This document shows, one piece after another, positions 10,913 through 53,751 of a stretch of 64,000 nt of DNA. A program made the position numbers and the translations under genes. Every line of letters starts with the position of its first letter. Position 1 is the first letter of the stretch. A model generated the notes under the pieces. That model did not search any database. It was not told the origin of the DNA and was given only the letters and a program-made list of their open reading frames with translations. The stretch comes from an uncultured virus (IMG/VR IMGVR_UViG_3300006789_000015) (taxonomy: Duplodnaviria; Heunggongvirae; Uroviricota; Caudoviricetes). The stretch is taken from IMG/VR virus record IMGVR_UViG_3300006789_000015; one strand, written 5' to 3'.

Positions 10913-11818
10913 TTAATTATTCTCTGGGTTGCCGCCTTGTTGCTTCTTCAACTGCTCTATGCTTTTTTTCAAGCCCATCAAAACCGAGTAGACATCTCCA
11001 GCACTACCCATATTTACGTCCTGCTCATTCAGCAAGTCTAAATCTTCCTCTGGAATGTAATCTTCATCCTCCATGTATTCTTCCTCATCGTCATACCAAA
11101 CTGGAGCTTTAACAACCGTCTCACAATGCTGAATAACTTTATATTCACTGGTACGCAACTTTTGACACTCGCAATCGTGAGGCACACTTACAACGTGCGC
11201 TGGATTAATTTCAACCAGCATTAAATGTCCTCCGTTACCAGTGTAACCTTGTGCGTACTCGTAAGTTCCAGCGTGTAGACCAGCACTACAACCATGATTA
11301 GCGTTATCGCTAACTTGATTCCGAGGCATCTTACAAACCTTTCCAACCGAGTTGTCAATCTGACCAGAATAACGATCCGTATAGTCAGAGTTGATTCCCT
11401 TGTAAGCGAGGAAGTTTCCGTCCTCCGTCAAGGGCATTTGCCTATGCTCAAGAAAATTATATAATTCTTCAACGGAACGGTGAGAAGGATTGTCTTGCAG
11501 TTTAGCAATAAACCTTGCAAGGGGTTTGAAATCTAAACCTTTTTCCATGAGGTCAAACAGCCGATCAATAACATGACCATGAAGTTCAGCACCTTCATAA
11601 AAACATTTGTTGTCTTTAATTTCAATCTGTCCTTCGCTGAAATTCGTGATGGCAGATTTTGTATCAAACAACTCCACTAGAGTTTCTCTATCTTGGTTTT
11701 TTAAAGCCTCAATAGCCTTGAGCCAGTTGGGACTTGTGGTAGGCATCGTATAAGGTTTGCCGTCGATTGTGACTGTTAGAAATTTGTCAGTCGCATTGAA
11801 TGGGATATAGTCGCTCAT
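10913..11818 (-). CDS. rIIB: rIIB-like protein
   Basis: DGNFLAYKG, DNSVG, MPRNQV, CSAGLHAG; adjacent to rIIA. Confidence 0.85.
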   Translation of the reverse strand: MSDYIPFNATDKFLTVTIDGKPYTMPTTSPNWLKAIEALKNQDRETLVELFDTKSAITNFSEGQIEIKDNKCFYEGAELHGHVIDRLFDLMEKGLDFKPLARFIAKLQDNPSHRSVEELYNFLEHRQMPLTEDGNFLAYKGINSDYTDRYSGQIDNSVGKVCKMPRNQVSDNANHGCSAGLHAGTYEYAQGYTGNGGHLMLVEINPAHVVSVPHDCECQKLRTSEYKVIQHCETVVKAPVWYDDEEEYMEDEDYIPEEDLDLLNEQDVNMGSAGDVYSVLMGLKKSIEQLKKQQGGNPENN

Positions 11819-11848: not shown

Positions 11849-14092
11849 TTAGCCGTTTATATTCATTGAGTCTACAAGATTCATATAATGAGCCAGTTCG
11901 TCAATGAGTTTCTGTTCACTACCTCTGCGATAATGATTGTGTTCAATATATTGAATCAAAGGATAAGTCGATTCAATTTTCTTTAAATGTTTTCCAAAAT
12001 TGTACCCAATAGCTTCCGACTCCGCTTTAATTTCGTCTACCAGATGCAACGTCCTTGTTAATTTCATGTAGTCATTAACTTTCGCATCATCATCGTGTAT
12101 CTGACGAGTTTTTTCGGCAAAAGATAATACTATATTCTCTTGATTAACCAACTTGTGCTTCAGACGATTTATTAATTTTCTCTCCAAATTATATAAAGGT
12201 GAGTATCCCCATCCTTTAGTATCCTCTTGATAAATGTTATAGTCAGCCCAAATTTGTTCGATACCATTTTCTTCAATCAAACGCTTCACTTCATCTTTCG
12301 CCCAAGGGAAAAATGGTTTCCAATTTTTAGCCTTCTCAACTTTACTTTTTAAAGCCTTTTTAAAGCCATAAACTCTTGGCATATCCAAACCTAAATCTTC
12401 AAAACCAGATTGAAAATTTCCAAAACAATTAGCTTTGCTATTACCATAGTAATTATCATCATCAATCAAGAATCTATCTATCATCACATAGACTCCGCTA
12501 TCAGCTTCAAGATCAACTTCGGTTTCTTTCCAATAAGCCGATGCCGTACTCTGCCATCCACCTTTAACTTTATCCCAATCCAGTTCAAAAATCTTGGTAG
12601 TATGTTTGCTGGATTTTGCGTAACTACTTGAATTGCTATTAGTGTTAACGCGAGGTAAGCATGATGCGTCTTTGTAGTCGCTATTCATGTACCTCTCTGC
12701 CAATTCTGACATTTTGTATCTGGTTAAAGAAGAAAGATTGACTACTTCCTCTGGATCAAAGTTGTTCTCTTTACAAAAATCTTTTTCAATTTGATCGTCG
12801 TGAAACGAAATCACGAAAGGCTTTTTATTCTCCTCAATGACCATCGGTAGCAATCGACCAAGAAGCATCCTGTTATTGCCAACATCATTTTTAATAATGA
12901 CGCTATCACTAGAAGCGACGATCCTGTTAATTGCTGCCGCTTTAAACTTTGAGCTTCTCCAAGTTTTGTCTACCGTATAGACAGTACCTTTACTTTCTTC
13001 AAGATAGTAATTGCTGTTATCAATTTTTTTATTGTTAAAAATTAAATCTTTGGCAACGATCTGCTTAACATGATAAAGGTCATTTGTCATATCAAAGAGA
13101 TCATTAAACAAACACTTCGCTTGGAAGTGGGTGGTGCATCCATTAAATCTTTCCAGCACCTTTTTAATAATATCTTTTTTAAGAGTTTTTAATTTGTTGA
13201 GTATGTTCCGCTTGGTATGGGTTGTGTATTGCAAACCTTCGCGGGATGCTGCCATCTCCAAGTCTCCAATATCAAAGTAAATTTCAAGACCGCTTGTGTT
13301 ACAAACTTCATACAGCCCATCTGTATCTCTACTGGAGTAGCCGAACCCTAAAGCATCGTTATCAAGTTCGTAACCAATGTTACCCATAACAGCAACAGCA
13401 TTACCAGATTCACCTGTACGAATTTTCCAGTTTTCACCTTCAAGGATTACTTTCCCTCTTTCCTCGAAATTTATAGTTTGTCCTTTGATAATAGGCTTAA
13501 TATCATAATACTTATAGACTCGTTCTGCCTTTTCTTTAAAAAGATCAACGTCATAGGAGTCATGTACGGGAACCCCAATTTCGATTCCATCGACTTCTTT
13601 TGTGGGGGTTTCCTCCAGAAGAACAATCTTCCCTAAATCAGACTCATCAATATAAGCGTTATAGACATACTTGACTCCATTAGAGTAACTCGTAATCGTA
13701 AACGAATCAGAATAAGAAAACGCAGACTTACTTCCTAGTCCAAGTTGTCCAATATAATCATTGGATTGTCTTTTAGTTGACTCTCCGTAATTAGCGTAAA
13801 TCTCACGAACTTCTTCTTGGGTAAGACCATCACCAAAATCTCTAATCTTAAAGGACATCTCCATTCGGTTTGGGAGTGTTACTTCAAAAGGCGTGGACTC
13901 ATTACCGTTTGCTACATGAGCATCGTAAGCGTTAGCAGAATACTCACGAACAACAGCAAGAATTTTGTCAGAGTAGAGTTGGTTTCGCAGAACATTAAAT
14001 ATGTGAGCGAATCCTCCCTGTTTGATTCCAAAGAAAACGGAGTCTTTTAATTCCCCCGAAACGGACAATGTGTTTTTTTCAAGAACTTTCAT
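11849..14092 (-). CDS. rIIA: rIIA-like protein (GHKL ATPase N-domain)
   Basis: REYSANAYDAH, IRDFGDGL, YGESTK, IGQLGLGSKS. Confidence 0.9.
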   Translation of the reverse strand: MKVLEKNTLSVSGELKDSVFFGIKQGGFAHIFNVLRNQLYSDKILAVVREYSANAYDAHVANGNESTPFEVTLPNRMEMSFKIRDFGDGLTQEEVREIYANYGESTKRQSNDYIGQLGLGSKSAFSYSDSFTITSYSNGVKYVYNAYIDESDLGKIVLLEETPTKEVDGIEIGVPVHDSYDVDLFKEKAERVYKYYDIKPIIKGQTINFEERGKVILEGENWKIRTGESGNAVAVMGNIGYELDNDALGFGYSSRDTDGLYEVCNTSGLEIYFDIGDLEMAASREGLQYTTHTKRNILNKLKTLKKDIIKKVLERFNGCTTHFQAKCLFNDLFDMTNDLYHVKQIVAKDLIFNNKKIDNSNYYLEESKGTVYTVDKTWRSSKFKAAAINRIVASSDSVIIKNDVGNNRMLLGRLLPMVIEENKKPFVISFHDDQIEKDFCKENNFDPEEVVNLSSLTRYKMSELAERYMNSDYKDASCLPRVNTNSNSSSYAKSSKHTTKIFELDWDKVKGGWQSTASAYWKETEVDLEADSGVYVMIDRFLIDDDNYYGNSKANCFGNFQSGFEDLGLDMPRVYGFKKALKSKVEKAKNWKPFFPWAKDEVKRLIEENGIEQIWADYNIYQEDTKGWGYSPLYNLERKLINRLKHKLVNQENIVLSFAEKTRQIHDDDAKVNDYMKLTRTLHLVDEIKAESEAIGYNFGKHLKKIESTYPLIQYIEHNHYRRGSEQKLIDELAHYMNLVDSMNING

Positions 14093-15623: not shown

Positions 15624-15887
15624 CTACCATTTAAGGTAGCCATAGATATTCATAATGACCAAAACAAAAGACATTAAAGCGGTAGGATATGCTTTTTTCT
15701 CAACGCAATATATACCAACCATTATATTTCCTGCTATCCAAACAGACCAACAAAGATCACTCTTATTAGCGTTAAGGTAATAGCCATATAGAACTAAAAC
15801 CGCCCCCAACCATCCCAAGGCGTGATGCTCTACTATTTGTCTCATACAGTTGCCACCCCCTTTTTTCCAACTACTATTGAAGCGCAT
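15624..15887 (-). CDS. small multi-TM protein, PnuC-like
   Basis: CWSVWIAGN...NIYGYLKW; three hydrophobic segments. Confidence 0.55.
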   Translation of the reverse strand: MRFNSSWKKGGGNCMRQIVEHHALGWLGAVLVLYGYYLNANKSDLCWSVWIAGNIMVGIYCVEKKAYPTALMSFVLVIMNIYGYLKW

Positions 15888-18212: not shown

Positions 18213-18482
18213 TTAATTATTTACGATTCTTTTTTTTGTATTAAACTTATTTAGGAGTCTTGATACCCCTACTATTTCTATGCCGACTTGAGTATTTACC
18301 TCATCAGTATCTATGGCAACCATATTTCTCTGCTTATCTGAATAAACCATTACTGATCCTACTTGACCTTGAGGTGGAGCTACATAAATATACATAGAAT
18401 CAGAGTCCTCATCGTAAGAGATGCGATTATTAAAATCGTACTCAAGGTATTTACCGTATCCTTTAGGGCTGTCTAGTTTCAT
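18213..18482 (-). CDS. DUF2283-like protein
   Basis: YDEDSDSMYI...D.D....VGIEI. Confidence 0.65.
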   Translation of the reverse strand: MKLDSPKGYGKYLEYDFNNRISYDEDSDSMYIYVAPPQGQVGSVMVYSDKQRNMVAIDTDEVNTQVGIEIVGVSRLLNKFNTKKRIVNN

Positions 18483-19401
18483 GGTATAATCTATAAATTA
18501 AAATTGCTATAGCAATATCTTCAATAGCTACTCCGGTAGAATCAAAAACAGATACTCCTCTATTTAACTGCATAGTTTCATGATTTTTAATTAAATGCTC
18601 TAAAGAATTAATGTCTAAACAAGGCCATTCATTATACTGTAATTCTCCAGAATGCAATGCTTGTCGTGGGTCATCGCAAATAATATTTGCCGAACCGTCA
18701 ATTACGTTTGTCATTAACTCTCTCTTACCGACTGCATCAGCACCGATAGCGTTGATATGACAATCAGTTTTGACATCATGAATATCCAAATAAGGTGATG
18801 TAGATGGTGTAAGAGTAGTAATAACATCTGCATATTTAACCGCTTCCTTTACTGATTCGTGTCTACCCCAAGCGTAACAAAGATTTTCTCTACCAAGCCA
18901 ATTAAACATTTGATACATGGGGCTTTCATTCGTATCGTAAAGCTGTATGTCCAACTTCATGTGGCTTTGGCAAATCGCTTCATAAGCTTCGATGTGATAC
19001 CTTCCCTGTAATCCGCAGCCAATTATTGCAAACTGTTCTGCGTCTGGAGCGCAATATTTCGCGGCAATGGCTGAAGTCACGGCAGTTCTATAGGCCGTAA
19101 GCGTGGCGCAATCCATGCCGAGTAGGGGTACGCCCGTTTCTCTGTCACTTAGAATAAGCGAACCATTTATAGTACGCTCTGGAATTTGCCGATTATCTGG
19201 AAACACTCCAATCCATTTTACCGCAGCATATTTTTTATACGCCACTGGCATAATTCTAAAATCTCCACCCTCACCTTGAAGATATGTCTTCTCAGGCATC
19301 AATACAGATTCATCAAGAAAAGCCTCCTCGATGGCCTCTGCGATCTGAAGCCACTTATCTTGCAGTAAGTCTTTAACCTGTAAATCTTCTAGGTATATCA
19401 T
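18463..19401 (-). CDS. ornithine cyclodeaminase/mu-crystallin/AlaDH family
   Basis: LTAYRTA, IIGCGLQG, HINAIGAD, FDSTGVAIEDIA. Confidence 0.9.
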   Translation of the reverse strand: MIYLEDLQVKDLLQDKWLQIAEAIEEAFLDESVLMPEKTYLQGEGGDFRIMPVAYKKYAAVKWIGVFPDNRQIPERTINGSLILSDRETGVPLLGMDCATLTAYRTAVTSAIAAKYCAPDAEQFAIIGCGLQGRYHIEAYEAICQSHMKLDIQLYDTNESPMYQMFNWLGRENLCYAWGRHESVKEAVKYADVITTLTPSTSPYLDIHDVKTDCHINAIGADAVGKRELMTNVIDGSANIICDDPRQALHSGELQYNEWPCLDINSLEHLIKNHETMQLNRGVSVFDSTGVAIEDIAIAILIYRLYHETRQP

Positions 19402-19970
19402 TCCGGTTTATTTTGAAAATCAGAAGGAAGCAGTTCATGAAAATACCATTCTTGTTTTTGAGATTCACTTCCTTCACCTTTGTTCTTGGATTTCTCCCCC
19501 TCATTCCCTTTACCCTTTTTGCCACCTCTTGTTATTTTCCCCATCACTGGTTGGCCTTGTTTTAACCTCCCTTTAACACCCTTTTCTAACTGTTCGTGAA
19601 GGCCGCGACTATACTTTAGCCCATACAAACGAGGCTCAATTCTCTCATAGCGATACCCGAAAAATCGACCTAAGAAATTGGATTTAGGTTTATCTGCTGA
19701 CTCTGCTAAAATATAAATCCTGCCTTTATGGTTGAGAGCCTTATTTGGTTCTTTAATTATAACCCAATGTATAACCAATTTTTCAGGCATATCATCTTCT
19801 AAAGAAGGCCAACCTAAAAAGGTGTGTATAGATGACCAAAAAATAACCGTGAACAAACAAAAGGTCGCTATACAGGCTGTTTTAAAATACCACTTCAATT
19901 TGGACTCGTTTAAAATCCAAAAACTTAAACCTCCGAAAATTAATAATAAAATTGGTAATGCTATATTCAT
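19398..19970 (-). CDS. two-TM membrane protein, possible partner of ExbBD-like pair
   Basis: Two N-terminal TMs, GWP, EPRLYGLKY..LHE, Gly/Lys tail. Confidence 0.65.
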   Translation of the reverse strand: MNIALPILLLIFGGLSFWILNESKLKWYFKTACIATFCLFTVIFWSSIHTFLGWPSLEDDMPEKLVIHWVIIKEPNKALNHKGRIYILAESADKPKSNFLGRFFGYRYERIEPRLYGLKYSRGLHEQLEKGVKGRLKQGQPVMGKITRGGKKGKGNEGEKSKNKGEGSESQKQEWYFHELLPSDFQNKPE

Positions 19971-19985
19971 TTCACATTTGTCCGT

Positions 19986-20270
19986 CTATTTGTAAAGTTC
20001 ACTTGCCTTTTTTAAATCGTACCCATCTTCTTTAGCTAGACCCTTTTCGAGTAGCTCTATAAAAAACTCTTGCACCCCCTTTTTGCTAACTCGCTTACGG
20101 TTTTTTTCTTTCTTAAAGAGTTCGTCAAAAGCTTTGTTGGTAGAAATTTCCATAGAGCAGGTTTCATCTGGGTTATCTTTAACGTCATGTATATAAACCC
20201 TCGGAAAATCACTGGCCATGACTTCATCAAAAGATTCGTCGTTAAGCGGTATTCCTTTATGCTTCTTCAT
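19986..20270 (-). CDS. hypothetical protein (MKKHKG start; in frame with truncated upstream gene)
   Basis: ATGTA-N8-ATG before 20270. Confidence 0.55.
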   Translation of the reverse strand: MKKHKGIPLNDESFDEVMASDFPRVYIHDVKDNPDETCSMEISTNKAFDELFKKEKNRKRVSKKGVQEFFIELLEKGLAKEDGYDLKKASELYK

Positions 20271-20389
20271 AACGTGTATACATCTAAGTAATATGCTACC
20301 GTCCTCATTATAAAAGACTTCGTGGACGCTGTACCAAGTGTTTCCATTCTTTTCGTGCTTTATGATTCTATTGTTCCACATCTATTTTC

Positions 20390-20677
20390 TCAAAATGTTC
20401 CTGAGCTTGGTAAATTATTGAACCTGTGTTGTAATTCTTTTTTTTTATTTTCAATGATCCAATTATGAAGAGTGCTGCTACCATGCCCGTACCCATAAGG
20501 CAATCGACGATGATCTTTAGTTTGTATTTCTGGAGGCTCACCCCAATTAGTGGGGAATGGCAAACCGCTAGGACTGTAATAAATGGTCGGTTCACATACT
20601 GGACAACAACATCCAGCCAAAAAGAAAGTTAACCAGACTAGCACTAGACTCAATATTAATAATAATATTTTTTTCAT
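20390..20677 (-). CDS. putative lipoprotein
   Basis: Signal peptide with lipobox LAGC. Confidence 0.65.
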   Translation of the reverse strand: MKKILLLILSLVLVWLTFFLAGCCCPVCEPTIYYSPSGLPFPTNWGEPPEIQTKDHRRLPYGYGHGSSTLHNWIIENKKKELQHRFNNLPSSGTF

Positions 20678-21180
20678 AACTTCAACATCTCTTGCAGTTT
20701 ATCCCAAGTTTCTTCTACATCGTTATCCGTATTTAATACGTGATCTGGGCCTCCATCCTCAAAATCATCAACATGATATTCCCTTCTTAAATCTCTCGTT
20801 GATTCTAGTAAAATCTCTACCACTTCATCTTTATTATTATTTTTTAATTCTTTTCGTAAATGCTCGTAAGGGTTAACTAGGCACATAACTACGTCGGTTT
20901 CATTATTTACTGTGACGCCATCAATATGATTCTCATCCTTCTCATCACGAACATAAATGCACATCCAGTCATTATTTTGCCCTTTTTTATTTAGGTAAGT
21001 GACTACCGCGTTTGCATTTCTAATATTTTCTTCACGACCATCTCTACCGTAATTCTTATTTGTAAACATCTCCCTAAATTCATCACCATCTATAAGAAAA
21101 GGGGTTTCGAGAGATTTTGCTAACAATTTACCAAGAGTAGTCTTGCCTGAAGCGGGTTGTCCATATAATATATAAATCAT
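20674..21180 (-). CDS. adenylylsulfate-kinase (CysC)-like P-loop kinase
   Basis: GQPASGKTT, IDGDEFR, YGRDGREENIR. Confidence 0.75.
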   Translation of the reverse strand: MIYILYGQPASGKTTLGKLLAKSLETPFLIDGDEFREMFTNKNYGRDGREENIRNANAVVTYLNKKGQNNDWMCIYVRDEKDENHIDGVTVNNETDVVMCLVNPYEHLRKELKNNNKDEVVEILLESTRDLRREYHVDDFEDGGPDHVLNTDNDVEETWDKLQEMLKL

Positions 21181-21186
21181 AATTTT

Positions 21187-21390
21187 TTATTTTGCAGAGT
21201 ATCTTTTGTACCCCCACCACACGTTTCTCAAATAGTAACTTAATTGACTAGCTTCTGTCCATTCATTATTATCTTTTAATTTTTGAATTTCCCCTTCCGT
21301 CAATTTGACCTTTCTGCAAAAGTCTTTACGCCTAGAGTAAGGGGGGATATAAGAAGGTCTTAATCCATTTGCTGAAGCTTTCATTTCCAA
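21187..21390 (-). CDS. hypothetical protein
   Basis: Small ORF. Confidence 0.5.
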   Translation of the reverse strand: MEMKASANGLRPSYIPPYSRRKDFCRKVKLTEGEIQKLKDNNEWTEASQLSYYLRNVWWGYKRYSAK

Positions 21391-21791
21391 TGATCTTTGA
21401 TGACACTTACACTAGATTGCCCTAAATACCAAATTTGACAGCTATATTTACCTAATTGCGGCCAATCCATGACATTTTGAATCATAAATAGTTCGTTTTT
21501 GGCATATTCATTATCGTTAAGGAATGTGAATATACACTGTAGTCTTAGGTGTCCATCTTCAACTAGGCTTACTATTACTTCAGGCTTTACTTTCGTCAAG
21601 CCCCCGACAACTCTCTGGCAATATTTTTTGCCGACGTCTGGATTTTTAGTCATCTTAATAGACTCTAAATCCACACCCTTCTCTGCTAAACCATTAAGTA
21701 GTAAATGATATACGTATTTATCATGAAAATTTTCTAATTTTTCGTAGAATATACTTTCGGTTTGCGCTTCGTATATATATTGTTCCGCCAA
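21381..21791 (-). CDS. hypothetical protein
   Basis: 136 aa ORF. Confidence 0.6.
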   Translation of the reverse strand: MAEQYIYEAQTESIFYEKLENFHDKYVYHLLLNGLAEKGVDLESIKMTKNPDVGKKYCQRVVGGLTKVKPEVIVSLVEDGHLRLQCIFTFLNDNEYAKNELFMIQNVMDWPQLGKYSCQIWYLGQSSVSVIKDHWK

Positions 21792-21893
21792 CTATATCGT
21801 TTTCTTTTAAGCCTTGCGTTCTCCATCTCCAAATCATTAATTTTGGATTCTAGCTTTGAAATTTTCCACTTTAGCATATGTGATCTATCCATT

Positions 21894-22481
21894 TTATTCT
21901 TCTAGTGGGTTAACCAGATTAGCTGGTAATTCGTTTATTTCTGTGATTTCCCCCTCTTTAGTTGTTCTAAAACGAAATGCCGTTTTTTCTTGCCCTGTAG
22001 ATTCGAAAATAATTTCCTTTTTTCTTATCTCTTTGTAAGGTTTTATTTTTAATAGTTGGATGGTCGCCTTAATTGGCTTCTCATCTTTTTTCAAATAAAC
22101 GTGTACCGTAACAATATTTTCTCCTTCCGTAACCCCCCTGAAGGAAACAATCTCTTCGTGAAATTTTACTATCTGCCCACCTTCTTCGGGTAAGCTATTA
22201 TTTCTTTTACCTAGTGCGTCATGATCTAAACTAATTAAACTTCCTTCACCGCCCTCCCTTCTATTAAAACTGACTTTATGACCTGAAGCAGATTGAACAT
22301 AAATATCTAAATCATCAGCACTCTCCGCATCCCAAGTCAGTATAACTTCGTAAAGAACATTTGGTGGACGCATTTTAGTTTTTTCTTCTTCCGTTTTCAG
22401 AAGGAAAAGAATTGCAACCAACATTAGTAAGCAGCAAAACAAGACATCAATGAACGGTCTAAATGAAAAAAATCTACGCAT
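21894..22481 (-). CDS. ExbD/TolR-like single-TM protein with YfaP/DUF2135-like soluble domain
   Basis: PFIDVLF TM with Asp; LTWD...DLDIYV...LDHD. Confidence 0.7.
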   Translation of the reverse strand: MRRFFSFRPFIDVLFCCLLMLVAILFLLKTEEEKTKMRPPNVLYEVILTWDAESADDLDIYVQSASGHKVSFNRREGGEGSLISLDHDALGKRNNSLPEEGGQIVKFHEEIVSFRGVTEGENIVTVHVYLKKDEKPIKATIQLLKIKPYKEIRKKEIIFESTGQEKTAFRFRTTKEGEITEINELPANLVNPLEE

Positions 22482-22968
22482 CTTCCTCTAATTTAAATTT
22501 TAAAATCATAAGCTGAACCTGCAAAGGTAAACTAAATACAATGCCGCAAACGGTTGTGTAAAAGGCAGTGTTTAACCCCTCTTTCAATCCAGCTACAATC
22601 TCGCTAGTAGGCAAAGAGCTATCAAGACCTCCTTCAGTAGCTATCACAAGACCAATAATTGTACCAAGTAAACCTAAAGAAAAAAAATGTTCTGCCGCAA
22701 ACCAGCCAATGTCAGCCCGTTTTAATAATTTATTTTTTTTAGCTTCAAAATCTTCTTTTATTTGGTCTGCCTGATAACACAATTTACCTACAAAAGCTGA
22801 AACACAAACATAAAGACCCATGATAAAGAGAGCGATATGAGATAAATCATTTTTAATTATCGTAGATATGATTCCCTTTTCCTCAACAAGAAGGACGGCG
22901 GTTAAAATAACGGCGTTAACGAGAAACCACTTAACAAATGTGGTCATCTTCTTTATAGATATATTCAT
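22474..22968 (-). CDS. MotA/TolQ/ExbB proton-channel family protein
   Basis: LGLLGTIIGL and GLNTAFYTTVCG. Confidence 0.85.
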   Translation of the reverse strand: MNISIKKMTTFVKWFLVNAVILTAVLLVEEKGIISTIIKNDLSHIALFIMGLYVCVSAFVGKLCYQADQIKEDFEAKKNKLLKRADIGWFAAEHFFSLGLLGTIIGLVIATEGGLDSSLPTSEIVAGLKEGLNTAFYTTVCGIVFSLPLQVQLMILKFKLEEDA

Positions 22969-22989: not shown

Positions 22990-23277
22990 TTAAACCCCAC
23001 CAGCATCACTAGTCTTATCGTTCTTATCCCAAAACTTTCGATCTCTTCGATCTCTTTCGTAAAAATCTGTATAGTGACAATTCCCGCCTTCAAATTTTGG
23101 ATAGGTTCGAGGACGGGAGGCTGCCTCTAACTCTTTATCTCTTTGGCGACAAATATTCCACTGTTCTTCTTCGTGCCTTGTCCTATAAAGAGGTAAGTCT
23201 ATAGTCGTTCCTTTGGACAGGATAAACCAACACAATTTCAATCTACTACTCCAAGCTAATTTGTTTTTGTCTCCCAT
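22990..23277 (-). CDS. hypothetical protein
   Basis: Small ORF. Confidence 0.55.
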   Translation of the reverse strand: MGDKNKLAWSSRLKLCWFILSKGTTIDLPLYRTRHEEEQWNICRQRDKELEAASRPRTYPKFEGGNCHYTDFYERDRRDRKFWDKNDKTSDAGGV

Positions 23278-24113
23278 CGTATCATTTCCTTAAAAATATT
23301 TTTTATAACAAATTTTAAATTTCTCCACTCTTTCAATCTCCTTATTACATAAGGTAGCCAACTTTCTCCAAATGGCACGTAAATTCTTACCCTATGACCT
23401 TTATTTTTAAAATCTCTTTGCAGATCACGCCTTACTCCGTAAAGAAATTCATAATCAAAATAATCTGGATTAGGTATTAAATCCCTTATATCTTCTAATA
23501 ACTCTTCGTCATGAGTAGCTATCGCAGGTTCATTCGCTTTACGCGAATACAAGGTAGCAGCTAAATGGTAAAATTGCGCTTCAATTTTATGATCTTCTTG
23601 ATAGGCTATTTCTTTGCTTTCTTTATAAGCACCCTTTACTAGACGCACTGAAACCCTTTTTTTAATTAAATAAAATAAGTCTTTTTCGGTTCTATGAAGA
23701 TTAGCTTGAACCGCCACGCCTACGTTTTCATATTTTTTATTTAAAGATAAAGCTAGATTCCTAGTTAGCTCGGTAAGAGTTGAGTCTTCCATATCTAACC
23801 TAATAGTATGACCAAAACTTTTTGCCTTCTTTGCTATCCCACCTATAAATAGAAGAGAAAGGTGAGGATGAATTTTCATTCCTAATTGAGAAGGTTTTAT
23901 AGAAATGTTAATTTTTTTATTTTTAAAATACTCTATAATCTTTAAATACTGAGAAAAAGCTTTCCTACAATCTTCTTGAGTTTTACTTTCTTCCCCGACG
24001 TAATCTATTGAAACTTCATAACCACTATCTAGCAAATTTTCTATCGTTGACTTTGCAGAATCGAAACTATACCCAGCTATAAAACGTTTCGCCAATGGGT
24101 ACAAAATCTTCAC
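23256..24113 (-). CDS. monofunctional proline dehydrogenase
   Basis: RFIAG, SIKPSQLG, LDMED, RLVKGAY, ATHD, YVPFG..W..Y..RRL.E; GTG 24113 behind TTGTCA-N17-TATTTT. Confidence 0.9.
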   Translation of the reverse strand: MKILYPLAKRFIAGYSFDSAKSTIENLLDSGYEVSIDYVGEESKTQEDCRKAFSQYLKIIEYFKNKKINISIKPSQLGMKIHPHLSLLFIGGIAKKAKSFGHTIRLDMEDSTLTELTRNLALSLNKKYENVGVAVQANLHRTEKDLFYLIKKRVSVRLVKGAYKESKEIAYQEDHKIEAQFYHLAATLYSRKANEPAIATHDEELLEDIRDLIPNPDYFDYEFLYGVRRDLQRDFKNKGHRVRIYVPFGESWLPYVIRRLKEWRNLKFVIKNIFKEMIRWETKTN

Positions 24114-24189
24114 CCATAAAAATACCGCTGTTAAGCATTTTTGACAAATATTTAAAATTTTGTTATTTTTATTGGTAAATGCCCCACTG

Positions 24190-25350
24190 TCACTTATTTT
24201 TACCAAACACTTCGTTTGATTGTTGAGATACTCTTACAAAGGTAGCGCATTTTGGCATATCTTTTAACTCTCTGGCTCCAATATAAGTGCAAGTGCTACG
24301 AATCCCACCAAGAATATTTTCGATAGTATTTTTAATAAGGCCGCGATGCTTTACTCTTACAGTTTTCCCTTCTGAGGAGCGATAACTAGCAACTCCACCA
24401 TGATACTTATTCATAGCCGTATCAGAACTCATTCCATAGAATGTTTTATATTTTTCTCCATCGACTACTTCTTCTTGCCCTGCTGACTCTGTATGACCAG
24501 CAAACATACCCCCCAACATAACAAAATCAGCACCAGCACAAAAGGCTTTTGCGACGTCCCCAGCGCAACAACAACCGCCATCAGACATAATATGCCCACC
24601 AATCCCATGAGCAGCATCGGCGCATTCAATGATCGCGCTGAGTTGAGGATATCCAACACCAGTCTGAATGCGAGTAGTACAAACAGACCCACCACCAATG
24701 CCCACTTTAACAATATCGGCTCCACTTAATAGTATCTCCTCTGTCATTTCGCCAGTAACAACATTACCCGCAATGATAATAAGGGCGGGATGTTCTTCTC
24801 TGACTCGTTTAATAAAATCACAAAACCTTGATGTATATCCATTAGCTGCGTCAATACATACGAATCGTGTGTGGTAAAAATTCCATGTAATATTATTAAG
24901 ATAATCTATATCATCTGTTTTTCGTGGGTCATATTTGATCCCAATAGAAGGAGATATATGCTCATAAATTCTATCCTGCCAACAATCGGAGTCACGGTTA
25001 TACTTCCAATTCTTTTCGTTAGCTTCTCGCTGTTCTTTATTTTTCCAAACCCCATAGCCGTTTAGTTTATGAGCCCAGACGTCTCCATCGTAATGTTTAC
25101 TAATGCAAGTGAGCATACGATACTTGGCAAGAGCTTTAGCGGTTTCAAACGTGCCAGTAGTATCCATATTTGCAGCTACAATAGGAATACCTGTCCAGCC
25201 ATAGCTCGGATTACCAGCACCATCTGCACCAGCATTCTTAAACTTAAAAGTCCGCACCAAATCTACATCGTTACGAGAAGTAAGCTCTGAACGCTTTGGG
25301 CGTAAAAGAACGTCCTTAAAGTCCAACTTTATATCTGGCTCAATTCTCAT
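24190..25350 (-). CDS. guaC: GMP reductase
   Basis: [45 protein letters not shown]. Confidence 0.92.
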
Positions 25351-27750: not shown

Positions 27751-28382
27751 ACGACGGTTCAGTAATTTATGACCTTTGGAAAAAATCCAAAAATGAAAGT
27801 ATTAAATGGTATACCTATTTCCCTAAATACGAACAACACTTTTCTCATTTAAAAAATAAAGAAATTAACTTTCTAGAAATAGGAGTAAGGGGCGGGGGGT
27901 CTCTTGAGGTTTGGCGTAAATTTTTCCCAAATGCTAAAAATATAATTGGCTTAGATATTGATAGCTCATGTAAACAATACGAAAGTCAAAAAGATAACAT
28001 CTTTGTAGAGATAGGAAGTCAAGATAATGAAGAAGTCCTTGATAATTTAATAAATAAATATAAAAATTTTGATATAATTCTTGACGATGGTGGACACAGA
28101 CCCGAACTGCATGAAAAAACCTTCAATCATTTATTTAAGCACTTAAATGAAAATGGGGTTTATTGTATAGAAGACTTGCATACTATATTTTTAGAAGATT
28201 TTAACAAAGATAATAAACAGAGCATTCTGGAAGAGTTACTTCCGAAAATTTTGAAGGGAAACTTTGAATGGCAAACTTCGATGCACCTTTATAGATCAAT
28301 CGCCTTTATAAACAAAATAAAGCCAGAGCCGCCTCATTGGTTTGGAATGCAGGTTAATGTACAAAATCCAGCCAAATTTTGA
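27747..28382 (+). CDS. class I SAM methyltransferase (sugar O-MTase type)
   Basis: LEIGVRGGGSL, GLDID, DIILDDGGH, YCIEDL. Confidence 0.85.
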   Translation: MNDGSVIYDLWKKSKNESIKWYTYFPKYEQHFSHLKNKEINFLEIGVRGGGSLEVWRKFFPNAKNIIGLDIDSSCKQYESQKDNIFVEIGSQDNEEVLDNLINKYKNFDIILDDGGHRPELHEKTFNHLFKHLNENGVYCIEDLHTIFLEDFNKDNKQSILEELLPKILKGNFEWQTSMHLYRSIAFINKIKPEPPHWFGMQVNVQNPAKF

Positions 28383-29173
28383 AAATAAATTTTCTTAATT
28401 CTTACGGTAATACTATAGATCATATAATCTTTCACTCGATAGCTTACGCAACTGTAGATAAACGAGAAGAAGATTACGCCTTGGATAATGGGTGGATGAA
28501 AATGCCCTACTTCCCAAATAAAAACATAACAAATAAAGAAAATATTTGGCTGCAAATTAGGCTTTCCAGAATTAACTTAAAGAAGTTTAAATGGAAGGCT
28601 GACGATAGAAGAATATTTAAAAAATTTAAAAAAGACTACTCTTACGAAGTAAAAAATGTAAATGAAATAACCCCAAAAGAAAGAAGGCGGCTTAAGGATA
28701 TATATTTTAAATACATAAAAAAGAAGAGCTTTTTAAAAACCCCAAGTCTCGAAGATACAAAAGCTTACGAATATGAATTTAAATACTTCTTCCTAGATAG
28801 CGATAATAAAAAAATAGTCCTCCATTACTTCAAGTCAAAACTAATAGCTTTCGCTATAATAGAAGAGTTTGAAAAATCAATTATGGGGATACAATTTGCT
28901 TGGGACTATGAACGTCCTCATTTGCGTATAGGTATAATGCAAAATAATATTATAGCAGACCTTTATAAAAGTAAAAATATAGATTACTATTACCTTGGGA
29001 TGTCTTACGGGAAAGAGTGCGTATATAAAAATAGATATTACGGATTTGAATTTTGGACAGGAAAAGAATGGAAAACAAATAAGCTAGAGTATAGAAAAAT
29101 GTGCATAAAAGATAGTATGATTAAGAACTTTGAAGATTTAGAGCTTTTAAATGATTATTATATTTATGAATAA
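28379..29173 (+). CDS. aminoacyl-tRNA-protein transferase-like (ATE/Bpt family)
   Basis: RINLKKF, IYFKY, KLIAF, FAWDY...RIG, YYYLG...YK. Confidence 0.65.
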   Translation: MKINFLNSYGNTIDHIIFHSIAYATVDKREEDYALDNGWMKMPYFPNKNITNKENIWLQIRLSRINLKKFKWKADDRRIFKKFKKDYSYEVKNVNEITPKERRRLKDIYFKYIKKKSFLKTPSLEDTKAYEYEFKYFFLDSDNKKIVLHYFKSKLIAFAIIEEFEKSIMGIQFAWDYERPHLRIGIMQNNIIADLYKSKNIDYYYLGMSYGKECVYKNRYYGFEFWTGKEWKTNKLEYRKMCIKDSMIKNFEDLELLNDYYIYE

Positions 29174-29582
29174 ATATGATAAAATGCAAGAAAGCTTATT
29201 GAAAGCTATACGACACCAAACGTATTGCAAAATAGCCCCGTCAAAAATCCACGGAGTAGGAGTATTCGCTATAAAACATATACCTATTAATATAGACCCA
29301 TTTAAAGAGTACCCTCAAGGCTCAGAAACCATATTTAAAGTAGAGCATGATTTACTAAAAGATATTGACCCAACTTTAAAAAAATACATCTACCAAATGT
29401 ATGTTAATGATCCTGAATATATTTATCTAGAAAATATATCTCCAAATAATTTACCAATATATTATCGCATGAACCACTCTAATGACCCAAACATCGCTTG
29501 GGATCATAAGAAGAGAAGCTTTAAATCTGTTAAAGGTATAAACGTGGAAGAAGAATTGCTATTGGATTATGACAAGTATTAA
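29151..29582 (+). CDS. SET-domain protein methyltransferase
   Basis: SKIHGVGVFA, NHSNDPN, EELLLDY. Confidence 0.85.
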   Translation: MIIIFMNKYDKMQESLLKAIRHQTYCKIAPSKIHGVGVFAIKHIPINIDPFKEYPQGSETIFKVEHDLLKDIDPTLKKYIYQMYVNDPEYIYLENISPNNLPIYYRMNHSNDPNIAWDHKKRSFKSVKGINVEEELLLDYDKY

Positions 29583-33967: not shown

Positions 33968-35170
33968 ATGAATGAAGAACTAAATAACGATTTGCCAGTA
34001 GAAAACAACTCTACTGAAGAAGTGTATAACGCCTATGGAACTGGGTCGGAGGGAACGGATATTGTAATGCCCGACATATTAATGCCGGAGCCAGAACCAG
34101 AACAAAAAGTAGAGGAAGTTAAAGATACTATAGATGTAGCTTTTAATTTTGCGTTTATTGGTGCTGGTCAAGGGGGATGTAGAATCGCAGAAACTTTTCA
34201 CAAGTTAGGTTATAGAAAAACCGCAGCGTTAAACACTGCGATTCAAGATTTAAACACCATCAAAGAAATTAATAATAAATTATGTATTGGTGATGGTGGT
34301 GCAGGAAAAAACCCCGCAGTTGCCGAAAAGCTTTACTCCCAAAGAAAAGAAGACGTTCTTGACTTCATGAAAGCTTCTTTTGGGGATGGTCTCGATAGAA
34401 TTTTCGTTTGTGCTGGAGCAGGAGGAGGAACAGGGGCAGGAACAGTAGTCCCGCTTGTCCATGCTGCAAAAGAACTGCAAGAAACTGTAAAAGCTGACTC
34501 AAAAAAAGTAGGCGTCATTCTCGCGTTACCAAAAGCTTCAGAAGGAAGAAGAGTAAATGCAAACGCTCACGGAACTTTAAAGAAGGTATACGAGTTGGTA
34601 GATGAAGGGATAGTCTCTCCTTTGATCATCTTAGATAATGAAAAAATAACTAAACTCTACCCAAATCTTGTTGTTTCTAATTTCTGGCAAACAGCTAACA
34701 TGAGTACCGCTGGTTTATTTAACTTATTTAACTTAACAGCGTCAAAAGATAGCAGCTATTCTGCTTTTGATAAAAGAGATTATGAGACTATTCTTAATTC
34801 TGGATGTATCGTATTCGGAGCTTCTCCAGTTACTAAGTGGGAAGACCCAATAAGTATTTCTAGAGCAGTAAGAGAAAATCTATCCAACAATCTTCTTTCT
34901 GGAGGATTAGATTTATCAACTGGCAAAAGCGCGGCAGCTATAGTTATCGGCGGAAAAGAACAGTTAGATAATATTCCTCAAATTAATCTAGACCAAGCTT
35001 TTGACCAGCTATCAAGAATGTTAAAACCCGGAAATGTCGTACATAGAGGAATCTATGTTGGGGATAAACCAAATCTAACTATTTTCACTGCCGTAGGTGG
35101 TATAAGTGAACCAGTAGAAAAACTGGAGGAATTAAAAAAGTTAGGTGACATAAAAGATACAGAAGATTAA
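33968..35170 (+). CDS. tubulin/FtsZ-family GTPase
   Basis: IGAGQGGCRIA, GAGKNP, signature GAGGGTGAG, LDNE. Confidence 0.9.
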   Translation: MNEELNNDLPVENNSTEEVYNAYGTGSEGTDIVMPDILMPEPEPEQKVEEVKDTIDVAFNFAFIGAGQGGCRIAETFHKLGYRKTAALNTAIQDLNTIKEINNKLCIGDGGAGKNPAVAEKLYSQRKEDVLDFMKASFGDGLDRIFVCAGAGGGTGAGTVVPLVHAAKELQETVKADSKKVGVILALPKASEGRRVNANAHGTLKKVYELVDEGIVSPLIILDNEKITKLYPNLVVSNFWQTANMSTAGLFNLFNLTASKDSSYSAFDKRDYETILNSGCIVFGASPVTKWEDPISISRAVRENLSNNLLSGGLDLSTGKSAAAIVIGGKEQLDNIPQINLDQAFDQLSRMLKPGNVVHRGIYVGDKPNLTIFTAVGGISEPVEKLEELKKLGDIKDTED

Positions 35171-35176: not shown

Positions 35177-35842
35177 ATGGCGTTTTTGAACGTAAACATT
35201 CCACCTCAAGAATGTTTCGTGAGAGGGGAGTTCTTGAGGAACATGGAAGATTCTCATGGGGCTCATTTTCCATGTTTACTCTTTGGTGCTGCTAGTATCC
35301 CATCCAATGTCCCCCTATTTCATTCTTTGATGGAAGATGGGGGAATTTTTTGGAAACTTCCGATTCATGCTTTTTGCTGGAAGGAAGATGCTCCATCAAT
35401 GGAGCTAGATGAATTAATGCTATGGGACTCCTTCAGCTATCATATGAGCGTAACTATTTTTGACGCTTTTAAATACTCTAAAGTGAAATATACGAGTAGA
35501 AGAAAAAAAGAATATGAAGGGACATATTTATTTACTTTAGATTGGGCTCATGAAGACCCAAACGTCATTAATACAGGATTTTCTGAAGTAGCAGGGCAAC
35601 ATAAGTGTGGTCATTTTATAAAACTGGATAATGGTAATTACGCCATACAACCAAATAATAGGTTAAGGGTCCATGACCCATCATTTTGTGTAAAACCAAA
35701 TCAGAGTATAATAGAGAGAAAAATTCATGACCAACAATGGAGCGTGGAAACTAACTGGAAATGGGTAACTAGTGATGATGACAGATACGATTACGGAATA
35801 GAATCCACCGACCCAGAAGACTATGGCCCAGTTGGGGGTTAA
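35177..35842 (+). CDS. conserved phage hypothetical protein
   Basis: YLFTLDW, HKC.H, LDNGN.A.QPNNR. Confidence 0.75.
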   Translation: MAFLNVNIPPQECFVRGEFLRNMEDSHGAHFPCLLFGAASIPSNVPLFHSLMEDGGIFWKLPIHAFCWKEDAPSMELDELMLWDSFSYHMSVTIFDAFKYSKVKYTSRRKKEYEGTYLFTLDWAHEDPNVINTGFSEVAGQHKCGHFIKLDNGNYAIQPNNRLRVHDPSFCVKPNQSIIERKIHDQQWSVETNWKWVTSDDDRYDYGIESTDPEDYGPVGG

Positions 35843-43430: not shown

Positions 43431-43769
43431 GTGGGAAATTTAAATTTAATTATTGCTGCAGAATTAAGTTCTGATCCACCCTCTGAAGGTTTATACTTCA
43501 GATTTATCACAATGGTCGCTAAAACAGACCTAAATTATGAAGTCGTAATAGAGTCAGAAAAGGAAATGGTTGATAATTATTATAATTTTTTAAAAAAGAA
43601 AGGGTGGTACGATTTCGTAGACGATATCATCTTACCAGAGTGGAGGGTAGAGGGGGTAAGGATTGATACAGAAAATAATTACCCTTTAACTATTAAAACT
43701 CCATATATTAGGTGTGAGAATACCCCAAATCTCTTAGGACAAATTAACTCTATTAGAGATTTTGTTTAG
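43431..43769 (+). CDS. hypothetical protein
   Basis: GTGTA-N9-GTG. Confidence 0.65.
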   Translation: MGNLNLIIAAELSSDPPSEGLYFRFITMVAKTDLNYEVVIESEKEMVDNYYNFLKKKGWYDFVDDIILPEWRVEGVRIDTENNYPLTIKTPYIRCENTPNLLGQINSIRDFV

Positions 43770-44552
43770 TAATATTTGGAAGTTCGGGCTATTGTATTTA
43801 TTATCAATAACTTCTTTTACTTCGTCGGGTAAATGATCCATATATCGACGATTAAGATAAAAATTTTTATCAAAAGGGGTCTTGGTTTTTATTAACCCCA
43901 TGTCAGTAGATGCTTGAATCACTTTATCTTCATCTACATAACCTTTATGTTTTTTAGTTAATTTAAATTTAGATTCAAGCTGAGATAAAATTTTATTTTT
44001 ATCTCGTATTAAGTCTTCGTATTGAATGAAAATCGAATTATCCTTATTACCCTCAAAAAGCTCCACCCACCTTCTGTAATTGAGCTCGTAACGATTGCAC
44101 CATCGTCTAACCCATCCATTTTTCAAAACGTCTTCCCAATCCAATCTTCTATGCCTAAACCTTTTAAAGCTATAAACGAACCCATAGATATCTTTTATCA
44201 TAAAAATATAATTAAGGTTGTCACAAGCATAATTAAGTTCATCCGCGCTAAAAGGTAATACGTAATTGTCCACACAAAGCACTTGTCCTTCTAGTAAAGG
44301 TTTAGCGGTTTTAGGATCAATACCTTTAGACATTTTTCTAACCCAATCCTTATGGCTTTCAGCTTCAAATTCGGGAAAGGTTTTAAGGTTATTCATGTAC
44401 CACCTCTCCTTATAATTTGAAACTTCATACATCCCGTGCTTCCACCCTAGAACACTTGCAAAAACAGTCGCCTCTTCAAAGTTTAGCTCAAGTAAACTTT
44501 TTAAATAATTAGTTCCTGTTCTTTGTTCTCCGTACTGTTTAAAATATTTCAT
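43734..44552 (-). CDS. sulfotransferase-like protein
   Basis: GEQRTGTNYL PAPS loop, GWKHG, IQYEDL. Confidence 0.7.
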   Translation of the reverse strand: MKYFKQYGEQRTGTNYLKSLLELNFEEATVFASVLGWKHGMYEVSNYKERWYMNNLKTFPEFEAESHKDWVRKMSKGIDPKTAKPLLEGQVLCVDNYVLPFSADELNYACDNLNYIFMIKDIYGFVYSFKRFRHRRLDWEDVLKNGWVRRWCNRYELNYRRWVELFEGNKDNSIFIQYEDLIRDKNKILSQLESKFKLTKKHKGYVDEDKVIQASTDMGLIKTKTPFDKNFYLNRRYMDHLPDEVKEVIDNKYNSPNFQILLNKISNRVNLS

Positions 44553-45607
44553 AAGGGAAATGGAAGCTTCTTTCTAGTTTCGTCATAATTACCTATTATA
44601 TCTCCGTCACTATTAACATAAATATATCTATCTTCATCAACCATTAAATCATGACCGACGTCTTTCCATTGAGATTTTTGATTTGGCCCATAAGACCAAG
44701 GGCCATCTCTTGTAATTGGAAAATATATTTCTGTCGCTTCAGATAAATAAGCGGCCATCCAACTCCAAGAACTTTGAGTAATAGCGACTTTATTAAATAG
44801 CCTTATAAAATTAAAAGTCTTAATCTCTGGCGGTTCTGAATGGGATAAAAAAATAGGATTATATTTATAGAGCGGTTGTAAAATTTCGTGAAAGGGCCAC
44901 TCAGAACAAATAAATAAACTTTTAAAATGAATTTTATCTAAGAGGGGTAAAAAATAATCAGACAAAACTCTTCTATTCCTAAACTGCCCATAGGTATAAT
45001 CTGGCCCAAGCCTTATGTTAAGAAGTAAGTCATCCTCATGTATTTTAGGGGTATGAATTTCCGTAAATCTATCATCGCCCACCCTAAAGGGGGTGGATGA
45101 AGTAGGTCTATGGCCATTTTTATCTACAATATGCCATCCATCAGGATAACGTGGGTACTCTTGAGAGACGTCTGTGTAGTATTTGTCATCATACCTCTTT
45201 CCTTTTTTTATTTCCTCATGATCCCAATTAATAATTTTAAAAGTTAAACCTTTTAAGTTGTCTCTCGAAAAAGGTTGATCCATGTACATCCAGTCATTCT
45301 TAATTTCGTTAGAATAATTTTTATAAAAAGGATAATACTCTAGGAAAGACCTTACGATAAATTTACAATCTGTTTGCCTTCTTAAATCTTCTACTTCTAC
45401 TCTATGCTTATGATTTTTTTCTGAAATTTCATAAACAGGATCATGAAATCTTTTACCTTCTAAATTCCAATCTCCAGAATTGTCTAAATATCTTATCTTG
45501 GGGCATTTTACATAATAATCTAGTTCTGCAGCCAAGCATCTACCAAAACAATATTGAATTACTTCATTGCCCCACCCGCAATTCCAATCTAAATCACAAT
45601 GAATCAT
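44549..45607 (-). CDS. GT11 alpha-1,2-fucosyltransferase-like
   Basis: GWGN..QY, IRLG.DY, SSWSWMAAYLS. Confidence 0.65.
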   Translation of the reverse strand: MIHCDLDWNCGWGNEVIQYCFGRCLAAELDYYVKCPKIRYLDNSGDWNLEGKRFHDPVYEISEKNHKHRVEVEDLRRQTDCKFIVRSFLEYYPFYKNYSNEIKNDWMYMDQPFSRDNLKGLTFKIINWDHEEIKKGKRYDDKYYTDVSQEYPRYPDGWHIVDKNGHRPTSSTPFRVGDDRFTEIHTPKIHEDDLLLNIRLGPDYTYGQFRNRRVLSDYFLPLLDKIHFKSLFICSEWPFHEILQPLYKYNPIFLSHSEPPEIKTFNFIRLFNKVAITQSSWSWMAAYLSEATEIYFPITRDGPWSYGPNQKSQWKDVGHDLMVDEDRYIYVNSDGDIIGNYDETRKKLPFPL

Positions 45608-48305: not shown

Positions 48306-48335
48306 TTTTTAAAAAGTGTTTTTAAATAGCGATTA

Positions 48336-49280: not shown

Positions 49281-49281
49281 A

Positions 49282-50067: not shown

Positions 50068-50549
50068 AGGTCTCTTCTCATCACTATGCTAACTAAACCG
50101 TTTTCCAGAACGTACTTTTTCGTTTCAATAAATCCCAACTTTAAATATAAAGAGTGAGCTATTTTGTTTTTTTCCAAGACTTCTAAGTCCACCTCTTTAT
50201 AATTATTATTTTTTAAAAAGTCAAACAATTTAAGATAAGAAGGTCTTGCTAAACCCTGCCCCCTAAAATCAGGGTGTATATCCATTCCAATTCTAATTTT
50301 ATCTTTAGAATCTGTGCGACACGTTCTAAAGTAGCCAAAATCTAATTTTCTGTAAGAAGCAATAAGCCAATAAGGAGAATCGTTTTCGTACCAAGAGTTA
50401 AATTGGTCTAAAGTGTATTGATCTGAATTATGTAGTACAAATCTAGTGGAGTCATCATTCCTAATCTCTAAAATGAATTTACCGTCAGATTTTTTTATCT
50501 CACGAATTTCGATATCTTCTTTATCTTTCATTCTGAGTATGGAGGCCAA
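50064..50549 (-). CDS. GNAT acetyltransferase
   Basis: IHPDFRGQGLA, N..A..LY.KLGF. Confidence 0.85.
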   Translation of the reverse strand: MASILRMKDKEDIEIREIKKSDGKFILEIRNDDSTRFVLHNSDQYTLDQFNSWYENDSPYWLIASYRKLDFGYFRTCRTDSKDKIRIGMDIHPDFRGQGLARPSYLKLFDFLKNNNYKEVDLEVLEKNKIAHSLYLKLGFIETKKYVLENGLVSIVMRRDL

Positions 50550-51975: not shown

Positions 51976-52157
51976 AGTCTTTCTTTTTCCTCCATCTCCT
52001 TTTGTCTCTTTCTCCTCATGTAATCCCTTTTTTGCTTCCTCCTTCTTTCTGGGTCTCTTTTGTCATATGCGCTTCTAGCTTTTTTTAAAGCTTTTTTTCC
52101 CTTTTCGGTCTCAAAATATTTTTCGTGTTTTTCTGCCATCTTTAGTATATCGTCCAC
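51972..52157 (-). CDS. small basic protein
   Basis: Arg/Lys-rich ORF. Confidence 0.5.
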   Translation of the reverse strand: MDDILKMAEKHEKYFETEKGKKALKKARSAYDKRDPERRRKQKRDYMRRKRQKEMEEKERL

Positions 52158-53750: not shown

Positions 53751-53751
53751 T

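Follow-up and report, generated by a model that had tools for sequence, protein, structure and literature searches.

A conserved trio of membrane-protein genes in a T4-like marine phage, best read as a new family of ion-driven envelope motors akin to Ton and Tol

Three genes for small membrane proteins, here called A, B and C, lie on one strand of a 64,000-nt stretch of the uncultured virus IMGVR_UViG_3300006789_000015 (IMG/VR; Caudoviricetes), the whole of which we refer to as the window. We consider it probable that the three form one module, a small ion-driven inner-membrane motor of the MotA/ExbB/TolQ superfamily, with the proton as the most likely driving ion. Our preferred reading is that the trio represents a new family of ion-driven envelope motors resembling Ton and Tol, within the superfamily of 5:2 motors. 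Ion-driven members of that superfamily supply the power for flagella, for the import of nutrients, for envelope maintenance and gliding, and for one anti-phage system. The MotA/ExbB-type superfamily is already known; what is new here is the head of the axle subunit (B) and the third subunit (C).

Gene linkage and the three proteins

We compiled 31 close viral loci, 46 loci from species-representative bacterial genomes, 80 further viral loci and two Rhizobium phage loci, which together with the window made 160 sources. The 46 bacterial and 80 viral loci (126 distant loci) were found with a 12-row alignment of B. Open reading frames (ORFs) were called and profiles were built by iteration. All three genes were present in 145/160 sources. 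The four sources without A had at most 119 nt of upstream DNA available, and the 11 without C all belonged to the window's own clade and had at most 4.8 kb of downstream DNA. Among the distant loci, viral and bacterial, the trio was complete in 122/126, with no more than 119 nt upstream in the four misses. Gene order there was always A-B-C on one strand, mostly with overlapping genes: the A-B gap was ≤30 nt in 118 of the 121 loci measured and the B-C gap was ≤30 nt in 113 of 121. No other neighbouring family occurred near the trio in more than 27/159 loci. The trio is the unit. A sequence-only reading of the window had named a protein with two transmembrane (TM) helices, about 1.9 kb downstream of B, as a third partner, and had pointed to similar trios elsewhere, an idea to be dropped if the third gene were not linked in other genomes. 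Both points were borne out: the gap from B to C is 1923 nt, and the link held when that check was run.

Profiles built only from the distant loci each picked out a single ORF among the 258 of the window, namely A (E = 1.8e-35), B (E = 3.5e-47) and, with a profile of 123 distant-locus proteins, C (E = 1.9e-49). At E ≤ 0.001 there were 821 relatives of B among 944 candidates (90% clustering) and 571 relatives of C among 613 candidates; the trio genes are therefore no chance ORFs. Positions of these and other features of the window are collected in Table 1.

Table 1. The trio and other features of the window.
Feature	Position (nt)	Strand	Description
Gene A, minimal MotA/TolQ/ExbB-family channel subunit	22474-22968	minus	164 aa; PF01618
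Gene B, ExbD/TolR/MotB-like 'axle' subunit	21894-22481	minus	195 aa; TM helix 8-29, short linker, beta-sandwich ~44-183
Gene C, third subunit	19398-19970	minus	190 aa; TM hairpin 4-22, 27-51; distant-loci profile
Five accessory genes between B and C	19986-21791	minus	136 aa; 67 aa; P-loop kinase-like, 168 aa; probable lipoprotein, 95 aa; 131 aa
Probable lipoprotein (among the five)	20390-20677	minus	95 aa; signal peptide and lipobox (Cys after L-A-G)
rIIB	10913-11818		E = 2.9e-73
rIIA	11849-14092		PHROG 612, E = 1.9e-117
ORF matching a nicotinamide mononucleotide transporter	15624-15887	minus	87 aa; PF04973
Ornithine cyclodeaminase/mu-crystallin family	18463-19401	minus	Pfam E = 6e-54
Proline dehydrogenase; GMP reductase/IMPDH family (in that order)	23256-24206; 24190-25350	minus	E = 1e-30; E = 2e-70
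Arginyl-tRNA-protein transferase-like	28379-29173	plus	ATE_C, E = 2.4e-6
SET-domain protein	29151-29582	plus	E = 2.4e-5
Tubulin/FtsZ-family GTPase	33968-35170	plus	PF00091, 47.5 bits
PHROG family annotated ferredoxin	35177-35842
Sugar-gene run	43734-58818	minus	see text

The channel subunit. A scores 28.0 bits on the MotA_ExbB model of Pfam, above the cut-off of 22.9, and its relatives in other loci score 26.8-38 bits on the same model, except for one (L002) under the cut-off at 20.1. Read from the sequence, A has four hydrophobic segments (residues ~13-28, 43-62, 88-110 and 134-157), the second and third being separated by only ~25 residues; judging from the family alignment its true start may be Met8. 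Across 42 diverse sequences G99, G102, T103 and G106 and A135, T139 and G142 are invariant, and Y137 and T138 are kept in at least 90%. The A family profile aligned by hhalign with Escherichia coli TolQ (probability 80%, E = 1.4e-5, 88 columns) and with ExbB (probability 45%, E = 2.2e-4), the conserved blocks falling on the last two helices of both. This places T103 and T139, invariant in 42/42 sequences, in register with ExbB T148 and T181, residues to which passages of PMC12204202 give a pore-threonine role.

The Asp-bearing helix of B. The start of B overlaps A by 8 nt. The single N-terminal TM helix of B holds the motif PFIDVLF, in which Asp12 is invariant in 46/46 diverse aligned relatives. 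In hhalign comparisons Asp12 aligned with Asp25 of E. coli ExbD (E = 0.0014, probability 17%) and with Asp23 of E. coli TolR (E = 0.0045, probability 8%), in both cases over the TM helix only, and the Pfam ExbD model PF02472 reached E = 0.005 in one of the 46 family members.

The head of B. The AlphaFold2 (AF2) model of B (pLDDT 90.7) has a beta-sandwich head. Its best structural matches by VIA-align were TerD proteins, with Z 9.7 for 2qz7_B (rmsd 3.8, 134 aligned) and Z 8.8 for 2kxt (rmsd 3.9, 141 aligned), the next-ranked match reaching only Z 6.1; Foldseek gave E-values of 9e-5 to 3e-4 against TerD-like chains. No periplasmic domain of the ExbD/TolR type was found in B, the model being an all-beta sandwich with TerD-like best matches. 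A profile search of PDB sequences with B returned nothing at E < 0.16 and no ExbD, TolR or MotB at E ≤ 1, and no OmpA-family Pfam match was present in the window B at E ≤ 0.1 or in the 46 family members at E ≤ 0.01.

At the sequence level, the B family profile aligned with E. coli YfaP at a probability of 90.3% (hhalign, E = 1.5e-6, 84 columns, B 40-143 with YfaP 139-226). The neighbour cluster of B in the ESM Atlas carries the automatic name 'YfaP (DUF2135 family)' with a score of 0.97, which we take as a lead only. The Pfam DUF2135 model (PF09906, 48 positions) matched neither B at E ≤ 0.1 nor any of the 46 members at E ≤ 0.01; it also gave no match in a scan of one trio-carrying genome, with the E. 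coli control matching, and the Pfam TerD model did not match the window B at E 0.1. The head residues W50, D57, D59, L85, D88, G91 and E110 are invariant in 46 sequences, and by analogy to the TerD fold the acidic cluster among them may form a cation (Ca2+) site. TerD and YfaP thus share the fold of the B head and, for YfaP, a distant sequence likeness, but neither is joined to a MotA/ExbB-type channel. TerD proteins are soluble and cytoplasmic, and YfaP belongs to the operon of the alpha-2-macroglobulin yfaS, a gene order that we also observed. The sequence-only reading had described a MotA/TolQ/ExbB gene overlapping a single-TM gene that keeps its Asp in PFIDVLF, with a soluble part like YfaP/DUF2135 and unlike ExbD/TolR or OmpA. 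Its coordinates were correct, the assignment of A to the MotA/ExbB type and the conserved Asp stood, and its view of the head was right in substance.

The third protein. C carries a conserved GWP motif, and in its AF2 model (pLDDT 82.3) the two N-terminal helices are followed by a barrel of five strands and one helix in OB-fold order (strands 64-73, 84-91 and 114-119, helix 122-137, strand 142-147 and a last strand at 174-179). A disordered, length-variable loop rich in Gly, Lys and Glu (~148-172, pLDDT ~55) precedes the last strand, which bears a conserved aromatic-x-L-P-P motif; in the model this segment is a loop within the OB-like domain and not a spacer ahead of a terminal domain. K30, G53, P75, R114 and Y120 are invariant in 51 sequences. 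Structural alignment of the soluble part returned OB folds only, at Z 5.0-6.6, which denotes a common arrangement and nothing closer. Foldseek gave nothing at E < 0.3, a wide VIA search with C was filled by helical-hairpin matches, and C had no match in Pfam, PHROG, NCBIfam or PADLOC. Across the family, Lys and Arg abound in the loop that joins the two helices, which under the positive-inside rule would put the soluble part of C in the periplasm. A complex prediction of B 40-195 with C 52-190 gave a median score of 0.31, against a mark of 0.32, a value that counts neither for nor against a contact.

Most C proteins are short: 123 of ~133 have 140-240 aa, and ~10 have a length that would hold a lysozyme. 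A complete GH24 Phage_lysozyme domain (PF00959) forms the end of C in one phage lineage, where it was found in 4/4 long C proteins scanned whole (E = 5e-47 to 6e-50); a fifth lysozyme-fused C is cut by the contig end, and five further C proteins are of equal length. The lysozyme begins immediately behind the conserved C-terminal motif of C and has its Glu/Asp/Thr motif in place, residues with a catalytic role in T4 lysozyme. The fusion points to the cell wall as the target. Because a GH24 lysozyme is fused to its end in this lineage, C is likely an output or anchoring arm reaching peptidoglycan. In loci of the fusion lineage (L116, L129, L132, L150, L144 and L058) a gene for a ClpP-like protease lies before the trio, directly except in L116, and in L129, which was scanned in full, a ribosomal protein S21 gene follows it.

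Distribution in phages and bacteria

Clustered at 50% identity, B was represented by 931 clusters at E ≤ 0.001 and 413 at E ≤ 1e-10, and it was present in many marine viral contigs. Among cultured phages it occurred only in Rhizobium and Sinorhizobium phages, P10VF and its relatives among them, with 23 records found by the window B and 29 by a distant B. Every one of these records is annotated as a hypothetical protein, and the genes of phage 16-3 bear bare gene numbers (p038-p042). Against cultured phages, blastn with the A-B region and tblastn with A and with C gave no match. In the temperate Rhizobium phage 16-3 (locus L163, 3271-5132) p038 corresponds to A (E = 1e-9), p040 to B (E = 1e-25) and p042 to C (E = 7.5e-9). 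The small genes p039 and p041 interleave this trio, and a trypsin-like protease gene, p036, lies upstream.

The module is not phage-specific: B was found in 43/301 genomes sampled from the class of one carrier titled 'Alphaproteobacteria bacterium', amid ordinary cellular genes. Bacterial contexts of the trio included SufBD with an ABC ATPase and aspartate dehydrogenase, a trehalose-phosphate synthase, and a histidine kinase with a response regulator. We built a tree of 138 unique B sequences (FastTree, midpoint root), leaving out rows of <170 or >260 aa and loci L075, L076 and L079. The window clade was monophyletic (support 1.0) and adjoined three sequences from metagenome-assembled genomes (MAGs) that are unclassified or of Candidate Phyla Radiation (CPR) type (0.92). 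Thirty-seven bacterial sequences formed one separate clade (0.91). Viral and cellular branches are intermixed, and the tree yields no direction of transfer. The module is a mobile unit common to bacteria (many Alphaproteobacteria and some CPR) and phages.

In the window's own clade the module is loosened. C was present in 21/32 sources of this clade, the B-C gap ranged from 265 to 5526 nt and was filled by changing small genes, and only here was C displaced from B in this way. The A-B gap exceeded 30 nt (71-1106 nt) in 8/32 sources; three loci (L003, L008 and L011) have 0.5-1.1 kb inserted between A and B. Among the 31 close relatives, the genes inserted between B and C differed in kind and order from one locus to the next, and none of them recurs beside the trio in distant loci. 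The five inserted genes of the window are no part of the module and account for its 1.9-kb gap. One of them likely encodes a phage lipoprotein, as judged from its signal peptide and lipobox, and relatives of it lie near the trio in 16/31 close viral loci, at times directly before C. We considered this lipoprotein as a fourth member and rejected it, as a lipobox protein was near the trio only in the window clade and nothing comparable was present in distant loci. The module sits in a variable accessory-gene region of the T4-like phage. B is absent from the nearest record, G001, but this is a fragment with an estimated completeness of 24%.

Setting of the trio in the window

The window comes from a T4-like marine phage and has a G+C content of ~35%. 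Besides rIIA and rIIB it encodes a clamp-loader-like ATPase, ThyX, a sigma-70-family factor, two tRNAs and many sugar-modifying enzymes. Its nearest relatives are IMG/VR viral contigs of at most 178 kb, and its rIIA shares only ~30% identity with those of cultured T4-like phages. The matching DNA sequencing runs were marine metagenomes, and no RNA run was among the matches listed. A Pfam scan of 108 window ORFs (12 + 33 + 63) gave no match to TonB, TolA, OmpA, flagellar or Zorya-partner families, in agreement with the earlier statement that TonB/TolA, flagellar and ZorC/D/E genes are missing from the window.

The module is flanked on its own strand by metabolic genes. The ornithine cyclodeaminase-type and proline dehydrogenase genes hint at changes that the phage makes to proline or ornithine metabolism, and the three flanking metabolic genes recur in related contigs with their order shuffled. 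Elsewhere in the window, this T4-like phage encodes a tubulin/FtsZ-family GTPase, followed by a protein of a PHROG family annotated as ferredoxin. The arginyl-tRNA-protein transferase-like gene overlaps that of the SET-domain protein, and both proteins are unusual in a phage. The 87-aa ORF matches positions 115-173 of the 175 in PF04973, the last third only, and could be either a remnant or a very short form. The long minus-strand sugar-gene run includes a sulfotransferase, a GlcNAc-type glycosyltransferase, dehydratase/epimerases, a GNAT acetyltransferase and a polysaccharide deacetylase, as well as a cupin, a methyltransferase, a DegT-type aminotransferase, an RmlD-like reductase and a nucleotidyl transferase; it looks like a phage-borne surface-glycan or nucleotide-sugar pathway.

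Relation to known motors, mechanism and meaning

By the usual tests only A is a member of a known motor family. The trio would work most like the Ton (ExbB-ExbD-TonB) and Tol (TolQ-TolR-TolA) systems. It shares with them a MotA/ExbB-type channel gene followed by a single-TM Asp gene and then by a membrane-anchored third protein whose flexible part would be periplasmic; the best alignment of A is to TolQ, with its pore threonines in register, and the TM helix of B aligns to those of ExbD and TolR. It differs in that A consists of four hydrophobic segments with almost no cytoplasmic domain and B has a TerD/DUF2135-like head in place of the ExbD/TolR domain, while C has a two-helix hairpin and an OB-like domain and lacks the TolA domain. 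The trio has no linked genes for Pal, TolB or TonB-dependent receptors. With MotA-MotB and PomA-PomB it shares a four-segment A subunit, a TM aspartate in the B subunit and overlapping A and B genes, but A is without the large cytoplasmic torque loop, B is without an OmpA-like peptidoglycan-binding domain, and no flagellar genes are in the window.

The nearest idea in print, among the passages of PMC12204202 considered here, is that of vWA-headed partners of TolQ-like rings. There, Williams-Jones et al. (2025) describe, from structure prediction only, a TolQ-like ring with single-TM, Asp-bearing 'transpore-helix vWA' partners. As in the trio, an Asp-bearing TM partner of a TolQ-like ring carries a periplasmic head other than the ExbD/TolR domain, but their vWA heads come in unlike pairs, whereas the trio has a TerD/DUF2135-like head, one B gene and a conserved C. 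Section 8 of that article does not mention the trio. A literature search, with subscription journals and supplements outside its scope, found no description of the trio, including in the relevant passages of PMC7029224, PMC12505986 and PMC12204202.

As a motor, the trio would work as follows. By homology, A would form a ring with the single TM helix of B inside. The invariant Asp of B and the two invariant pore threonines of A would make up the ion path, and flow along it would drive movement. The DUF2135-like sandwich of B, with its TerD fold, would sit in the periplasm where other motors have an ExbD/TolR or OmpA-like domain. C would be anchored by its hairpin, with the positive loop cytoplasmic and the OB-like domain, flexible loop and C-terminal end periplasmic, and would act as an output or anchoring arm working on the wall. 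Our best guess for its role in infection is that it spends energy to work on the wall or envelope, for example in wall upkeep or remodelling or in timing the breach of the wall. Superinfection exclusion and proton-motive force (pmf) control, both raised by the sequence-only reading, are guesses, and for its further suggestion of interference with Zorya or Ton we found no evidence for either in particular.

Several observations weigh against a Ton/Tol-like motor. The likeness of B to ExbD and TolR is limited to 19-27 columns of the TM helix, where hhalign probabilities are low, and B falls under the ExbD Pfam cut-off (13.7 vs 25.4 bits, TM region only). A has almost no cytoplasmic domain, so that a flagellar-stator mode of working is impossible for it. 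The hallmark of TonB and TolA is a single TM helix with a conserved Ser-His-Leu-Ser motif, according to passages of PMC12204202; C has two TM helices, no invariant His and no TonB_C domain. C is tied to A and B by synteny only, and contact and stoichiometry among the three are inferred. In the window clade C never adjoins B, and tight co-translation is therefore not required. The trio genes are neither separated nor dated by any promoter, terminator or T4-type late-promoter signal: scans for promoters and terminators stayed at the level of chance (26 vs 23.2 expected; 5 vs 4.4 expected), and TATAAATA was absent from the minus strand between 19.4 and 25.4 kb. Finally, the trio also occurs in CPR-type MAGs (L071 and L078). 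CPR bacteria are not known to have an outer membrane, and an outer-membrane target of the Ton/Tol kind would therefore not be general.

Other readings account for parts of the same evidence. The lysozyme fusion with its Glu/Asp/Thr motif in one phage lineage, the small membrane proteins throughout and the presence of rIIA and rIIB 8-10 kb away in the window would all suit a lysis or lysis-timing device, in which a membrane complex sensing or using the pmf restrains C as a wall-degrading arm until de-energisation, comparable to signal-anchor-release endolysins with pinholins. We regard this as unlikely, since most C proteins have no enzyme domain, the trio stands as an operon of its own amid housekeeping genes in bacterial chromosomes (with B as frequent in one sampled class as given above), and the ion-path residues are conserved like those of working motors. 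The window trio, moreover, lies amid early-type accessory and metabolic genes with no recognisable holin, endolysin or spanin beside it. Least probable of the readings, and in our view improbable outright, is that A and B are a plain ion leak or channel that adjusts membrane potential or ion balance during takeover, with C an unrelated neighbour. The reduction of A to a channel core and the lack of a recognisable plug or peptidoglycan-binding domain in B are consistent with it, but C is linked to A and B, with overlapping reading frames, in nearly all distant loci, a leak has no use for the large and highly conserved periplasmic head of B, and free-living bacteria retain the trio.

A module of the Zorya kind for defence or superinfection exclusion, in which the motor senses disturbance of the envelope by an incoming phage and blocks it, and which moves among phages and bacteria, would explain the patchy, mobile distribution. 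TerD-family operons have been linked to phage inhibition. Like ZorA-ZorB, the trio has a MotA/ExbB-core channel outside motility and uptake, and A gave weak profile matches to ZorA, far below the cut-offs (PADLOC, E = 7e-7; NCBIfam, E = 1e-5). These matches span only the common MotA/ExbB core, however, and the matching profiles have 413-780 positions, whereas A has neither that length nor the long ZorA tail. In the PADLOC scan, which covered the A, B and C proteins, B and C matched no defence model, and the trio has no conserved neighbour of the ZorC/D/E type, nor a conserved nuclease, helicase or other effector next to it. We judge defence quite unlikely.

The Ton/Tol-like motor may also be drawn more boldly. 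In that fuller form, which we put forward only tentatively, the trio would make up one more self-contained class of ion motors directed at the periplasm, alongside Ton, Tol, Mot and gliding: the A ring would turn a B axle with a Ca2+-binding, TerD-like head, which would drive or position the C arm on peptidoglycan, and phages would use the trio to make the wall be cut or held according to the energy state of the membrane, as would be clearest in the lysozyme-fused lineage. If this were true, abundant marine T4-like phages would bring their own envelope motor into the cell. Each new motor output module has informed on how membrane energy is transferred across the periplasm, and the function of the trio can be tested directly in Rhizobium phage 16-3, P10VF and their relatives, which carry it and are both cultured and tractable. 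A phage with its own envelope motor would, if confirmed, be a new kind of host takeover.

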